Shown here in pieces: positions 26,988 through 30,897 of a stretch of 64,000 nucleotides of DNA (its first letter is position 1; the number at the start of each line of letters is the position of its first letter). The translations under genes were made by a program, and so were the position numbers. The stretch is from a virus: positions 1,291-65,290 of IMG/VR virus record IMGVR_UViG_3300050120_000053. The stretch is one strand, 5' to 3'. Under the pieces are notes generated by a model that was given only the letters and a program-made list of their open reading frames with translations, was not told the origin of the DNA and searched no databases.

Positions 26988-27275
26988 ATGAAAGCAACCG
27001 TAGGTTTTCCGGGACTGCCAGTGACCGAAGGTTTCACGCAAATCGGTTTTGAGTCGCCCGGCTTCGCACCTGCGCCGACGAGTGTCGAAACGCTTCGCCA
27101 CATTGCCGATACGATATCGGGTGATGGGGCGTTCATCATGCAAGGGATTTTGCGAAAGGCGGCGGATGAATTGGAGGCAGCCAACGTGCGCATAGCCGCT
27201 CTCGAACAGCGCGCAGCCCAAGCGGCAGAACTGGTATCGAAGGCGGTCAAAATGATGGCGCCCCCAAAGATTTAG
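26988..27275 (+). CDS. Hypothetical protein with coiled coil
   Basis: RBS AGGAG; LRKAADELEAAN.RIAALEQR. Confidence 0.6.
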   Translation: MKATVGFPGLPVTEGFTQIGFESPGFAPAPTSVETLRHIADTISGDGAFIMQGILRKAADELEAANVRIAALEQRAAQAAELVSKAVKMMAPPKI

Positions 27276-28084
27276 GCAGGAACAGCCATCTTAGCGAGCG
27301 CCGCGGCCGTGGCTTTGTAGCCATCGTTGAACAGTTTTTGCCGCGTGGCGAGTGGCATGTTGCGGGCTAAAGTCGACGCATACGAAGTATCCACGAACAC
27401 CATCTTCGCTCCGGCCGCCTGCGCCGCGCTCACGTGTGCCGATTCGCAAGCGCTGAGCATCAGATCGATAATCCGCATACCAAGCGTCAACAGGCTTAGC
27501 CGCGCGCCCGGCAGCAGCGGGGTATCGTTGCTCACCAACTGGATGCCTAAACGCGGCACATCGTCCATCACGAGGCTGTCGGCGGCGATGTTCGATGCCA
27601 TTCCGCCATCCTGGTGAATCCGATCGAGACACGTCACCGGCTCAAAGACGAATGGCAAGCTCGCCGACGCGCGTACGGCCAGCGCGACAGGGACATCCGC
27701 GGCATTGTCTTTTGAGAAAATGAAGCGGGTATTATTTGTCAGGTCGGAGGTCACTGCTGAGAAGCGAATCGGCAATTGGCCAAATGTCTTGCCGCCGGTC
27801 TTCTCCGACAGGAACGCCAACAGATTATTCCCGTTGCAGAATCCCAGCTTGAACGCCGAAAACGGAGTCCACGACATCATGTCAGCCCAGTCGTGAGTCA
27901 ATGCCAGCGTTTTCATGTCAGCGAGTGGCATCCCGCAGGCGTACAAAGCGCCGATAATACTGCCGGCGGATGTACCGATAATCTCGACGGGTTCATACCC
28001 TGCATCGATTACGGCCTGCAATGCGCCGGCGTGTGCAGGGATTTTGAATCCCGCCCCCGAGAAAGCTAGGCGGATCGGTTTCAT
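27272..28084 (-). CDS. Patatin-like phospholipase
   Basis: LAFSGAG...AHAGAL oxyanion loop, GTSAG nucleophile, DGG aspartate; ATG at 28084 overlaps the upstream TGA. Confidence 0.92.
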   Translation of the reverse strand: MKPIRLAFSGAGFKIPAHAGALQAVIDAGYEPVEIIGTSAGSIIGALYACGMPLADMKTLALTHDWADMMSWTPFSAFKLGFCNGNNLLAFLSEKTGGKTFGQLPIRFSAVTSDLTNNTRFIFSKDNAADVPVALAVRASASLPFVFEPVTCLDRIHQDGGMASNIAADSLVMDDVPRLGIQLVSNDTPLLPGARLSLLTLGMRIIDLMLSACESAHVSAAQAAGAKMVFVDTSYASTLARNMPLATRQKLFNDGYKATAAALAKMAVPA

Positions 28085-28530
28085 CACGCGCTCGCAGCAA
28101 CCGGAGCCGGCGCAGGAACCGGAGCATATTGAGCAAGCGCGGCCGAAACGGCGATTGACGCTGCAGTCAGGGCGATTTCTGCGCTGGTCTTGTCTGCGTC
28201 TTTCATCGGGCTCGCAGCGATGATCTTGATGGCTGCCGGGACCGCAACGTTCACAAAATCCTGAACCGAATTGATGGCCGGTGCCGGTGCGGAGCAAACT
28301 GTTGAGACGACTGCCGACGCCTTCGCGAGATCAGCCTGCTGATCGACGGTTAATTGCGCGGACATGGCCTGCAACGAGAGCAGCGTCGGACTGGCGACTG
28401 CGCATGCCTTCGTCACTTGCGTTTGAAAATTGGCGAGGATTTGCGCGGGCGTCTGCGTCGTGCCAGTCGAAGCACATCCGGAAAACGCAACACAAACAGC
28501 CGCTGCAGCGGCGATGAAAACGGCTTTCAT
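28084..28530 (-). CDS. Ala-rich lipoprotein (spanin candidate)
   Basis: MKAVFIAAAAAVCVAFSG-C lipobox; hydrophobic Ala-rich C-terminal helix. Confidence 0.72.
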   Translation of the reverse strand: MKAVFIAAAAAVCVAFSGCASTGTTQTPAQILANFQTQVTKACAVASPTLLSLQAMSAQLTVDQQADLAKASAVVSTVCSAPAPAINSVQDFVNVAVPAAIKIIAASPMKDADKTSAEIALTAASIAVSAALAQYAPVPAPAPVAASA

Positions 28531-28539
28531 GGGTGATCC

Positions 28540-28845
28540 TTACTTGGGAGCGAATTTAGCGGCAGTGACGGCCGCGGAAGTGACAGCAGCAGATATGTCA
28601 GATGCAGCGATGGCGGCGGCAGCGATCGGCGCGGCTGCATTGACGCCGGTTTCTACGAAATGAATGCGATAGATGCCGCCCGATTCCATGGCGTCAAAGT
28701 TGACCGAGGCGATGTTTTTGCTGTTCGTCACCACGGCGCGGCAGCAGATGACTTGCTTGGCGCCGGCGTCGTAGAAAGGCTCGACGCTGTAGGTAGCGCA
28801 TCCGGCAAGCGTGACGAGCAGCAGGACGAGCGCGGCGCGGATCAT
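28540..28845 (-). CDS. Lipoprotein (spanin candidate)
   Basis: MIRAALVLLLVTLAG-C lipobox; Ala-rich C-terminus. Confidence 0.75.
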   Translation of the reverse strand: MIRAALVLLLVTLAGCATYSVEPFYDAGAKQVICCRAVVTNSKNIASVNFDAMESGGIYRIHFVETGVNAAAPIAAAAIAASDISAAVTSAAVTAAKFAPK

Positions 28846-29045
28846 TGCGCAGGCGGTGCAGTGGGCGTCTGGTCGGTCTGAGCCGATTTCTTGGCATCCG
28901 AGACGGCATGGATAACGCCGAGAGCCGCCAGCGCCGCCGTGATCGCTCCGATGAACCCATCGACGGGCGTACGGCCGAAGAATGCGAATACGCCCCAAGC
29001 CAGCATCAGCGCGGCGTAACAGGAAACTTTCAGATAGATGTTCAT
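28842..29045 (-). CDS. Two-TM holin/antiholin candidate
   Basis: 67 aa, two hydrophobic helices, polar C-tail, within the lysis cassette. Confidence 0.6.
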   Translation of the reverse strand: MNIYLKVSCYAALMLAWGVFAFFGRTPVDGFIGAITAALAALGVIHAVSDAKKSAQTDQTPTAPPAQ

Positions 29046-29057
29046 AGGTGCTCCGAG

Positions 29058-29414
29058 TTAGGAATCAGCCAGAGGCCGATGCTTTATCTTTTCGGACCAG
29101 TGCGGTGCGTCCGAGGTGACTTCGACGTTGAAACTCTTAAAATTCCCGAGATGGCCGAATAGCAAATGGCAATTCGCCCCGCCCCTGTTTGCCTCGCATA
29201 ACGTCACGAGATTTGTCGGTTCGAGCTCAAGATCGGGATGGAGATGGAACGGACGGATGTGGTGCACTTCCAGCTTTACCGAGCCGCCGCAAACTTCGCA
29301 GACTGGATGCAGCGCTAGGTGCTGCTTGCGCACAGTGGACCAATGGCCCGAGCGCGCGGTGCCGAGCGGATGCTTGCCGTTGGCAGCATCGATGAGGTGT
29401 TTGATAACTGGCAT
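29058..29414 (-). CDS. HNH endonuclease
   Basis: CEVCG...EVHHI.P...N.VTLC...CH. Confidence 0.88.
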   Translation of the reverse strand: MPVIKHLIDAANGKHPLGTARSGHWSTVRKQHLALHPVCEVCGGSVKLEVHHIRPFHLHPDLELEPTNLVTLCEANRGGANCHLLFGHLGNFKSFNVEVTSDAPHWSEKIKHRPLADS

Positions 29415-29486
29415 GGCTCACCAAAAGAAAAAGCCACCCGAAGGTGGCTGGAATAATTCTGGAATATTTTGTAGTGCGTTTTGTCG

Positions 29487-29780
29487 TCAGTCTTCCCAGT
29501 CGGGAATCTGGACCGTCTGGCCAGCGAGCTTGTGCGTGCAGTCGCCGAGGAATTGAATCATTCCATCCTTGATGAAGGAGTGGCAGGTCTTAGGCGTATC
29601 AAACTCAGTCCAACTGACCAGCACGCTTGGACTGATGGTCGGGTGCTCGACGTTCTCATTGAACGACCAAACCGGATGGCCAGTGCCTGCGACATAAACA
29701 ACATGCAGGGATTCGCAACCGGGGCACTCGAACAGCATCGAGCGCGTGCCGTTGTCGTGCATCTGTTCGTGGAATTTCAT
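29487..29780 (-). CDS. DUF6527-like Zn-binding protein
   Basis: CPGC..LH...W.FN....PT.SPSVL...CHSFI.DG.IQFL.DC.H.LAGQ. Confidence 0.75.
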   Translation of the reverse strand: MKFHEQMHDNGTRSMLFECPGCESLHVVYVAGTGHPVWSFNENVEHPTISPSVLVSWTEFDTPKTCHSFIKDGMIQFLGDCTHKLAGQTVQIPDWED

Positions 29781-30412
29781 GCGATCCCCGATGCTTTTTT
29801 TCCTGCGGTATAGAGAGCGAGCCGTTCCGAATAGCTGTTTGGCATGGCCTTCGCGGTCGATGAGCCAAGATTCACCGCGCGGCTCACGCCCAAAAAATTC
29901 CCGGCATCAGCCAGCGCATTCAAATTTCGGTTGTACCAATACCAAGCCGAGGCCATGGCTGCGGCCCCCGGTTGCTCGATCAGCGCCGGCGTGGTCGTTA
30001 GATCCAGTTCCATGCCGATACCGCACAGAAGATAGTTACGTCGACCGGTGATGCCCATCGCGCGACCACGGAACAGCCATCCGTCACCGCTCGCTTCATC
30101 GCCGTTACCGTTACGATTTGCGTATGCACGGTTCGCGATCATCGGCGGCTTGTGGGCATACTCCTGCGCCTGTTCCGGCGTGAAATATTTGGAGAATGTC
30201 GAGAGCAAACCTTCTGCGCTGTAATTCAAGTTTTCGGACAACGCCGTGAGCCGTGCGGACTCGATGCCATAGGTCGCGAGGAATGCCGCCGCGCGCAGCG
30301 GCGTGTTGATCTGGTACTTGTCGCAAGCGGCCTGGAGCGGCTGAACCCATTGCGCAGAGCGCAGAACGGCCGCACCGCATGAGGCTGCGATGATTTGCGT
30401 GGTGAGAAGCAT
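29777..30412 (-). CDS. Endolysin, glycoside hydrolase family 19
   Basis: INTPLR.AAFLA....ES..L....ENLNYSAEGL...IAN..YANR.GNG.E.SGDGW.FRGR...TGR.NY. Confidence 0.92.
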   Translation of the reverse strand: MLLTTQIIAASCGAAVLRSAQWVQPLQAACDKYQINTPLRAAAFLATYGIESARLTALSENLNYSAEGLLSTFSKYFTPEQAQEYAHKPPMIANRAYANRNGNGDEASGDGWLFRGRAMGITGRRNYLLCGIGMELDLTTTPALIEQPGAAAMASAWYWYNRNLNALADAGNFLGVSRAVNLGSSTAKAMPNSYSERLALYTAGKKASGIA

Positions 30413-30420
30413 GGAAGCCC

Positions 30421-30897
30421 CTATTTCGAGCCAGATGTTGTTTGCGTCGGCGCGAGAACAGGTGTCGTGCGCCCTTGCACTAGAAACTCAAGCGTCGCCA
30501 CGCGGGCGTCGCTATGCTTCATGTCATTTTGAAAATTTTGATAGAACTCTTGAATCTGCACGACCAGCCAGCCACCAACGGGTAGGCATGCAAGCAGAAC
30601 GGTGCCGGTGATCCTCCACGCCCAGCCGTGGACGTTGATCGTGGATTCAGCCTTGCCGAGCCGTCGGTAAAATTCGAGGAATGCATCATCGTGTGACTTC
30701 ACTTTCTCGCCAAGCTGCCCGATCAACTGCGCCTGCAGCTTCTGACCGAGGTTCAGTTCGATCAGCGTGTCCATCTTTATTGCGAGGTCGCTCAACAGCT
30801 GCTTGTTGTTCTCATGCCGCTCGTCGACCTTCTCGTCGAGACGTGTTATCTGGCTTTGCAATTCGGTATTCGTGACGGCTGTCATGTGGTCGTCCAT
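30421..30897 (-). CDS. Single-TM coiled-coil protein upstream of endolysin (holin candidate)
   Basis: Coiled coil, TM WAWRITGTVLLACLPVGGWLVV, second coiled coil; alternative start at 30885. Confidence 0.55.
   Translation of the reverse strand: MDDHMTAVTNTELQSQITRLDEKVDERHENNKQLLSDLAIKMDTLIELNLGQKLQAQLIGQLGEKVKSHDDAFLEFYRRLGKAESTINVHGWAWRITGTVLLACLPVGGWLVVQIQEFYQNFQNDMKHSDARVATLEFLVQGRTTPVLAPTQTTSGSK

Follow-up and report, generated by a model that had tools for sequence, protein, structure and literature searches.

How phages of Gram-negative bacteria breach the outer membrane when they carry no recognisable spanins is an open question in phage lysis. The question is raised by a stretch of viral DNA of 64,000 nucleotides (the window), which covers bases 1291-65290 of the 70,257-bp IMG/VR virus record IMGVR_UViG_3300050120_000053, a record rated complete. 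Eight co-directional minus-strand genes (30927-27272) form a cassette in which a putative holin, an endolysin, a DUF6527 protein and an HNH endonuclease are followed by a small protein with two transmembrane (TM) segments (TM2), two lipoproteins (LP1 and LP2) and a patatin-like phospholipase. The original prediction for this locus had given the same eight genes in the same order and place, and the tight junctions it described in the last part of the cassette, an ATGA overlap, a 9-nt gap and a TGATG overlap, were all found. It had proposed a lipase-assisted lysis pathway. Based on comparison with related loci, we consider it rather probable that the TM2-(LP1)-LP2-phospholipase module ends the lysis operon and takes the place of the spanin genes. 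A phospholipase released by the holin, together with lipoproteins of the envelope, would then replace spanins, a proposal which on balance we favour.

The module was found in approximately 135 prophage and phage loci of Burkholderia, Paraburkholderia, Ralstonia, Collimonas and their relatives, and because of this recurrence the arrangement is far beyond chance. For the patatin version 97 loci, corresponding to 56 patatin clusters at 90% identity, were gathered from species genomes and IMG/VR. Hidden Markov models (HMMs) grown from the window and from four hand-read loci were run on the 90 loci with enough upstream sequence. LP2 ended at the patatin start in 71 of these, TM2 was present in 55 and LP1 in 43; LP2 relatives were reached only via lipase neighbours and local HMMs, so that the survey is biased toward lipase-linked copies. 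In a homology-free lipobox scan 82/93 loci had one or more lipoprotein genes in the 2 kb upstream of the patatin. In loci which have neither LP1 nor LP2, the slot after TM2 is taken by other small lipoprotein families. Searched by tblastn with GH19-like, glucosaminidase, GH108 and GH24 sequences, 69/90 patatin loci had an endolysin at most 5 kb upstream; a median of 1.15 kb separates its end from the start of the patatin. Phage_lysozyme or M15 peptidase domains were identified with Pfam in some of the remaining loci.

The module is found behind at least six endolysin families. The cassette lies downstream of myovirus baseplate genes or siphovirus GpJ-type tail genes and is usually the last in the prophage. 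Its module genes run in one direction with little or no space between them, stop and start codons overlapping, which favours a common role in lysis. Locus L086 repeats the order of the window with a GH24 endolysin (holin-like gene, endolysin, DUF6527, HNH-like gene, TM2, LP2 and patatin). A gene of the HNH type, longer than the HNH gene of the window, recurs between endolysin and TM2 in L153 (5679-6314), L086 (approximately 5673-6284), BgManors32 (gp45) and Raharianne (gp55). One conserved HNH family and one conserved holin family over all loci were considered and rejected, as the window proteins showed no pairwise similarity to their slot counterparts in L153 and BgManors32; the tallies for HNH and holin genes therefore describe slot occupancy, mainly by types other than those of the window. 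In locus L159 tail-fibre-like genes part the HNH-TM2-lipoprotein-LP2-lipase block from the endolysin, a hint that the block is mobile as a whole.

Three structurally unrelated lipolytic families fill one slot behind one lipoprotein family. In addition to the patatin loci, LP2 was found directly upstream of a class-3 lipase (PF01764) in 21/21 loci and of a DUF1353 protein in 15/18, L159 being one in which the gene after LP2 encodes a DUF1353 protein. In the nearest relatives of the window's endolysin (55-62% identity) the order is endolysin, HNH-like gene, 68-aa protein with two TM segments, 148-aa LP2 and class-3 lipase with a GHSLG motif. Two isolated phages, BgManors32 (gp47-gp42) and Ralstonia phage Raharianne (gp53-gp58), are annotated with this gene order, and in most class-3 loci the LP2 gene shares 4 bp with the lipase start. 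Between a class-3-lipase locus and a patatin locus the LP2 proteins are 80% identical, and the LP2 of BgManors32 is 54% identical to that of a patatin prophage of B. glumae. These values across lipase types indicate that the swaps are recent and that LP2 is not tailored to one enzyme fold. Based on reading of the sequences, neither the patatins nor the class-3 lipases nor the DUF1353 proteins carry a signal peptide; they resemble holin-dependent endolysins in this respect, which again speaks for a part in lysis. TtaP, the founding member of DUF1353, was experimentally shown to be a phospholipase A2 and is encoded beside a phage-type muramidase, TtsA; its authors favour an outer-membrane-perturbing role and found no lysis or secretion phenotype (PMC11525133).

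RefSeq phage DUF1353 proteins are widely auto-annotated as "tail assembly chaperone"; with the only characterised member being a phospholipase A2, this annotation is probably wrong or incomplete. "Shewanella phage vB_Sb_QDWS" (OK094664.1) and "Hujiaoplasma phage zrk29-1" (OP650936.1) are both 47,902 bp in length, and each encodes a class-3 lipase which is 93% identical to that of a Burkholderia-type prophage. Their host assignments look doubtful, and the two records may represent one Burkholderia-like prophage or a contaminant.

Spanin genes were sought in the whole 70,257-bp record. Strict and relaxed six-frame lipobox scans returned only LP1 and LP2 as credible lipoproteins, and a scan for membrane proteins revealed no open reading frame (ORF) with an N-terminal TM segment followed by a long coiled coil. 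No hidden Rz/Rz1 pair was found in the record. The membrane proteins of the cassette do not conform to the i-spanin plan, since the coiled coil of the 168-aa putative holin is N-terminal to its TM segment and TM2 has two TM segments within 67 aa. No small Pro-rich lipoprotein of the o-spanin kind was found in the record, while the identical scan detected typical Pro-rich Rz1 genes in control loci; among distant relatives of the window's GH19-like endolysin such genes stand 270-700 bp beyond the endolysin gene. BgManors32 and Raharianne, whose genomes are complete, have LP2 as their sole credible lipoprotein and no annotated spanin. Pro-rich Rz1-like ORFs were present in 2/135 module loci versus 26/72 control loci, the latter picked solely by their GH19-like endolysin; the module loci are phylogenetically related and their counts are not independent events, so that the contrast is a pattern with no formal statistic attached. 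Both Rz1-like ORFs among the module loci lie kilobases past the prophage end, in host DNA. Rz1-like genes and the module are almost mutually exclusive.

The two lipoproteins were compared with unimolecular spanins, which their Ala-rich C-terminal helices had originally called to mind. Both have standard N-terminal lipoprotein signals, with a positive N-region and a hydrophobic core ahead of the lipobox, and in both the lipobox Cys is followed by the Ala that had been noted at position +2. A C-terminal transmembrane domain (TMD) is present in neither: the best C-terminal 19-residue hydropathy was 1.62 for LP1, in a segment with Asp and Ser, and 1.47 for LP2. The tails of homologous lipoproteins are polar, and the C-terminal segment of LP2 is a helix of a predicted four-helix bundle. 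The resemblance therefore did not hold for the lipoproteins of the window. The variants named LP1-long (140-149 aa; L029:1400-1849 and L099:6576-6998) have a Gly/Ala/Leu-rich hydrophobic C-terminal stretch and stand directly ahead of the patatin with no LP2; their lipobox and C-terminal TMD together make up the architecture of a unimolecular spanin.

These variants could be taken to suggest that TM2 with LP2 and/or LP1 forms a non-canonical spanin-like complex which disrupts or fuses the membranes, the phospholipase being an accessory that speeds or completes the breakdown. The order of TM2 and a lipoprotein gene with a 4-bp overlap mirrors that of i-spanin and o-spanin, a lipoprotein of one family or another always follows TM2, and the Pro/Ala-rich tails on both TM2 and LP2 could interact. 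We regard such a complex as unlikely, as TM2, with its 67 aa and two TM segments, has no periplasmic domain long enough to span the periplasm, and LP2 models as a compact bundle. That a lipolytic gene, whichever of the three folds it encodes, is strictly retained behind LP2 speaks for a central role of the enzyme.

The LP2 family evolves fast, with a mean identity of 30% in the alignment. It keeps the lipobox Cys, two further Cys residues and one Pro, and the tail is rich in Ala, Pro and Ser. The AlphaFold2 (AF2) model is a confident up-down four-helix bundle, with a predicted local distance difference test (pLDDT) score of 82. A Foldseek search of this model against the PDB gave no match at E<=0.001, the top weak rows being plant pectin-methylesterase and invertase inhibitors. 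A wide search with VIA-align returned generic four-helix bundles only (Z<=10.9, below the informative level for helical bundles). No match to the LP2 of the window was obtained by tblastn among GenBank phages. A complex prediction for the patatin and mature LP2 scored 0.00, which is no verdict and speaks neither for nor against binding.

LP1 is the variable member of the module. It is dispensable, because fewer than half of the 90 patatin loci have it and because BgManors32 and Raharianne are without it. The LP1 homologues of L015 (B. multivorans), L019 (B. seminalis), L121 and L129 have Asp at +2 (CDS...) in the position of the Ala of the window's LP1. Based on the E. coli rule Asp at this position means inner-membrane retention, and the sorting of LP1 may therefore differ between phages. 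No LP2 with Asp at +2 was found. TM2, the first gene of the conserved module, shares 31% identity (E 3e-6) with its counterpart in L159. Nothing was found for TM2, LP1, LP2 or the 168-aa protein in PHROGs, Pfam or PADLOC, and their matches in the ESM Atlas are unnamed clusters only.

The phospholipase was identified as a patatin with 106 bits against the curated PF01734 cut-off of 27.7. The motifs are SGAGF at residues 9-13, GTSAG at 37-41 and DGG at 159-161, giving a catalytic dyad of Ser39 and Asp159; residues G10, G12, S39, D159, G160 and G161 are invariant among 24 relatives, and the GTSAG and DGG motifs are intact as predicted. An export signal is missing, because the sequence opens directly with the Gly-rich motif. 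The AF2 model (pLDDT 89.7) has the patatin alpha/beta fold. The best Foldseek match was the passenger domain of PlpD (5fya; E 1e-15, TM-score 0.74-0.80, 27% identity), followed by CapV, CapE, VipD and patatin. The subfamily is sharply bounded, with approximately 95 clusters at 44% identity or more and then a fall from 210 to 106 bits. Its hosts are all betaproteobacteria (Burkholderia, Paraburkholderia, Collimonas, Noviherbaspirillum, Candidimonas and similar genera). Among GenBank phages the sole match to the patatin was the unrelated patatin of an Acinetobacter jumbo phage, and no isolated phage with the patatin version was found.

The analogy originally drawn to CapV, an effector of the cyclic-oligonucleotide-based antiphage signalling system (CBASS), is weak. 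PADLOC gave a generic phospholipase-effector match of E 1e-6, and no cyclase of the CD-NTase (cGAS/DncV-like nucleotidyltransferase) family adjoins the patatin, its neighbours being lipoproteins, HNH, DUF6527, endolysin and NinX-like genes. Patatins do serve as CBASS effectors, and together with this faint match they raise the wider alternative that LP2 and the lipase are a moron unrelated to lysis. Such a moron, expressed in the lysogen or on superinfection, would be an effector of abortive infection or defence, resemble a toxin/immunity pair, or act as a factor for host fitness ("exotoxin"). Lipase effectors of the type VI secretion system are paired with periplasmic lipoprotein immunity proteins, and the interchangeable enzyme is like that of polymorphic effector cassettes. 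The site at the prophage edge by the integrase and attachment site (int/att) is a known hotspot for accessory genes, and a terminator-like hairpin lies upstream of HNH. We hold a moron to be improbable. No sensor or cyclase is nearby and all neighbours were identified; the composition is not atypical, as GC content and GC at third codon positions (GC3) of the operon equal those of the structural genes, with no sign of a recent foreign origin. Defence morons are typically patchy, whereas the module is near-universal in its phage lineage, almost mutually exclusive with Rz1, and carried also by plaque-forming isolates. A lipase without export signal and a periplasmic LP2 have the wrong topology for immunity in the producing cell, and one LP2 type serves unrelated enzymes. 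Even if the genes serve the prophage in defence or conversion, an effector design with three interchangeable lipase folds after a single lipoprotein would be new.

The likeness to PlpD, which is a secreted lipase, bears on a further alternative, in which the enzyme works once the cell has lysed, or extracellularly. Its targets would be membrane debris or vesicles that trap progeny, or neighbour cells or host tissue, and rupture would not need it. A soluble, signal-less enzyme would be released in bulk at lysis, and the missing lysis and secretion phenotypes of TtaP agree with this (PMC11525133). It is nonetheless very unlikely, as it explains neither why the enzyme is obligately paired with a lipoprotein of the envelope and a 2-TM protein nor why spanins are absent.

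For the localisation, timing and substrate of the proteins in a lysis module, and for the roles of LP1, LP2 and TM2, we infer the following course. The candidate holin, the soluble endolysin and the patatin, which has no signal sequence, would build up in the cytoplasm or inner membrane late in infection. TM2 would enter the inner membrane; after export and lipidation LP1 and LP2 would probably go to the outer membrane, as both have Ala at +2. On firing of the holin, endolysin and patatin would gain the periplasm together. The endolysin would strip the wall, and the patatin would hydrolyse phospholipids both in the outer membrane, at its inner leaflet, and in the inner membrane once this is exposed; the lysolipids and fatty acids so formed would rupture the last barrier. 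LP2 would be a generic cofactor on the envelope side that serves as a docking site or perturbs the membrane; since lipases of unrelated families go with almost the same LP2, inhibition of one particular enzyme is probably not its role.

Several points weigh against this reading. The evidence is comparative-genomic throughout, and the relatedness of the loci applies to all counts. A strong terminator-like hairpin parts DUF6527 from HNH-TM2-LP1-LP2-patatin, so that the module could be expressed differently from the endolysin; in L159 it is split from the endolysin altogether. Morons and genes for lysogenic conversion or defence also typically occupy the last place of an operon at a prophage edge, and several database names call the patatin protein "exotoxin". 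A share of Gram-negative phages reportedly has no recognisable spanins anyway, and the absence of spanins alone therefore proves little. DUF1353 genes in other phages sit among tail genes. An active cytoplasmic phospholipase would need control before holin triggering, and no mechanism for this was identified. The place of a lipase-linked module at the spanin position is supported by its being kept behind many endolysin families, by the three lipase families, by the lack of canonical Rz/Rz1 in three complete genomes and by its near-exclusion of Rz1.

The features of the cassette are listed in Table 1. The 168-aa ORF more likely starts at 30897 or 30885, because its first ATG sits in a terminator-like hairpin, and its stop is 8 nt ahead of the endolysin start. 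An analogous architecture was found at the matching slot in BgManors32 (gp47), L003 and L086, with no pairwise similarity between the 168-aa protein and gp47. The endolysin is similar to characterised GH19-like endolysins, PDB entry 4ok7 being the SPN1S endolysin, and gave no match to the Pfam Glyco_hydro_19 model at E<=0.01. It is soluble, with no signal sequence; a signal-arrest-release (SAR) endolysin was ruled out, since the N-terminus is the usual first helix of the endolysin family and its hydropathy maximum is a low 1.31. The DUF6527 protein scored 54 bits against the Pfam cut-off of 23.6.

Table 1. Features of the putative lysis cassette, in the order of transcription (coordinates of the window)
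Feature	Coordinates	Strand	Properties
Two tandem terminator-like hairpins with T-runs	30917..30971	-	Stems 30971-30952 and 30935-30917; directly upstream of the cassette
Putative holin, 168-aa ORF	30421..30927	-	N-terminal coiled coil; one TM segment at approximately 107-125; short C-terminal tail
GH19-like endolysin, 211 aa	29777..30412	-	PHROG 181, E 6e-68; PDB 9eoi, E 3e-43; PDB 4ok7, E 1e-22
DUF6527 protein, 97 aa	29487..29780	-	PF20137, E 1e-14; phrog_3362, E 5e-33; ATGA overlap with endolysin stop
Terminator-like hairpin between DUF6527 and HNH	29432..29449	-	7-bp GC-rich stem, TTCG loop, T-run
HNH endonuclease, 118 aa	29058..29414	-	PF01844, E 2e-6
TM2, 67 aa	28842..29045	-	Two TM segments (hydropathy 1.71 and 2.0); Pro/Ala-rich tail
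LP1 lipoprotein, 101 aa	28540..28845	-	Lipobox LAGC, then A; CC motif; Ala-rich C-terminus
LP2 lipoprotein, 148 aa	28084..28530	-	Lipobox FSGC, then A; low-complexity tail
Patatin-like phospholipase, 270 aa	27272..28084	-	PF01734, E 3e-30; last gene of the operon

The tandem hairpins suggest control by read-through or antitermination. In all, three hairpins, two of them with T-runs, lie between an Arc/ribbon-helix-helix-like gene (31036-31485, PF03869) and the cassette (30917-31040, minus strand) with no room for a promoter after them, which looks like lambda-style antitermination control of the lysis operon. Farther upstream, a Bro-N domain protein (31797-32669, plus strand) is followed by an overlapping long ORF (32255-33331, plus strand), whose C-terminal part resembles a 226-aa protein adjoining the lysis genes in L152. 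Both are probably genes of the antirepressor type that were inserted between the lysis operon and the tail genes. At the other end two adjacent paralogues of the NinX family (PF10765; plus strand, 26182-26616 and 26667-26951) converge on the end of the patatin gene.

The layout of the genome is like that of Burkholderia phage BgManors32, with plus-strand early genes, then a tyrosine integrase (24648-25643), the minus-strand cassette past the integrase and minus-strand tail and head genes beyond it. No close relative of the window was found at the DNA level among the GenBank phages searched. The window represents a BgManors32-like temperate myophage of a Burkholderia-type host. A 52-bp direct repeat (90% identity) is present in the early region at 22531-22582 and 22783-22834. 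A direct repeat of 5.9 kb with 99.5% identity was observed at 622-6561 and 63027-64000 of the window, the latter copy going on to record base 70257, with a spacing of 62,405 bp. As it extends to the record end and the first 1.9 kb of the record are unrepeated, the "complete" 70-kb record may represent a genome of 62.4 kb whose ends are redundant, or else portions of two prophage copies that lie in tandem and differ slightly.

The module offers a concrete and testable answer to how a large group of Burkholderiaceae phages may breach the outer membrane, and culturable phages were identified in which to pursue it: BgManors32 (B. gladioli) and Raharianne, Hyacinthe and Albius (Ralstonia). In the literature no description of a lipoprotein-lipase module in Burkholderia or Ralstonia phages was found, only the phage WO and TtaP papers being relevant; prior ideas are limited to the phage WO hypothesis and mycobacteriophage LysB. 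Beside two-component spanins, unimolecular spanins and disruptin, there could be a further class of outer-membrane disruption, composed of LP2 as a four-helix-bundle lipoprotein of the outer membrane, a small 2-TM protein of the inner membrane and an interchangeable signal-less phospholipase acting via the holin lesion. Such a class would be standard in many Burkholderia, Paraburkholderia and Ralstonia phages, with TtsA-TtaP as a domesticated remnant; we give this broader proposal somewhat less than an even chance. If true, it would provide roles for the three orphan families LP2, LP1 and TM2 and a biological role for phage DUF1353/phospholipase A2 proteins, and tie the TtsA/TtaP pair of typhoid toxin to a phage lysis ancestry. 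It would also improve the annotation of lysis genes in Burkholderia and Ralstonia phages considered for biocontrol.

The module shares with the spanins of lambda (Rz/Rz1) and T1 (gp11) its place right after the endolysin and the presumed task of removing the outer membrane, and with two-component spanins the sequence of an inner-membrane gene and an overlapping gene for an outer-membrane lipoprotein. It differs in that the window has no coiled-coil i-spanin with an N-terminal TM segment, no Pro-rich o-spanin and no lipoprotein with a C-terminal TMD, and in that an enzyme gene is integral to the module. The patatin fold with its Ser-Asp dyad is common to PlpD, CapV/CapE and ExoU; the patatin of the window has neither the autotransporter domain of PlpD, nor the cyclic-nucleotide partner of CapV/CapE, nor the type III secretion and ubiquitin-activation region of ExoU.

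Mycobacteriophage LysB is a lipid esterase which is encoded beside holin and endolysin in the lysis cassette and handles the outer lipid barrier instead of spanins. It has a cutinase-like alpha/beta-hydrolase fold and targets the mycolyl-arabinogalactan linkage of mycolata. The proposed likeness lies in a lipolytic enzyme of the lysis cassette that deals with an outer lipid barrier in the spanins' stead. LysB has no lipoprotein or 2-TM partners; the enzyme of the window is of the patatin fold, not of the cutinase-like type, and the host is Gram-negative, while related loci carry a class-3 lipase, an alpha/beta-hydrolase. Release of colicins offers a second parallel, as colicin lysis lipoproteins of approximately 30 mature residues act via the outer-membrane phospholipase A (OMPLA, host PldA). 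There a small lipoprotein and a phospholipase activity permeabilise the outer membrane and free cytoplasmic or periplasmic contents, much as is proposed for the phage module, which differs in bringing its own soluble lipase, where colicin release uses host PldA, and in its larger lipoproteins.

A patatin-based lytic cassette has been hypothesised for phage WO, in which a patatin gene lies beside a small TM/coiled-coil holin-like gene by the tail module (Bordenstein & Bordenstein 2022, PMC9203015). There no peptidoglycan is detectable in the host, and the patatin, with an ankyrin protein as partner, is suggested to stand in for the endolysin, a proposal itself hypothetical (PMC9203015). The window shares with WO the presence of a patatin and a TM/coiled-coil protein proposed for lysis, and differs in having an endolysin and lipoprotein partners, the missing piece being the spanin; no ankyrin match was found in its cassette with Pfam or PHROG. 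TtsA-TtaP likewise combines a phage-type muramidase with a small signal-less phospholipase A2, of the family that takes the patatin slot behind LP2 in the DUF1353 loci. It belongs to the chromosomal typhoid toxin islet, serving toxin release and not a phage, and no LP2 or TM2 was reported (PMC11525133). The lipase-assisted lysis first proposed for this locus thus gains comparative support, and its placing outside the standard scheme needs to be qualified in view of LysB and WO. By analogy the module would, in our judgement rather probably, be a functional parallel to LysB and to the OMPLA-dependent colicin lysis lipoproteins, and close in spirit to the WO cassette.

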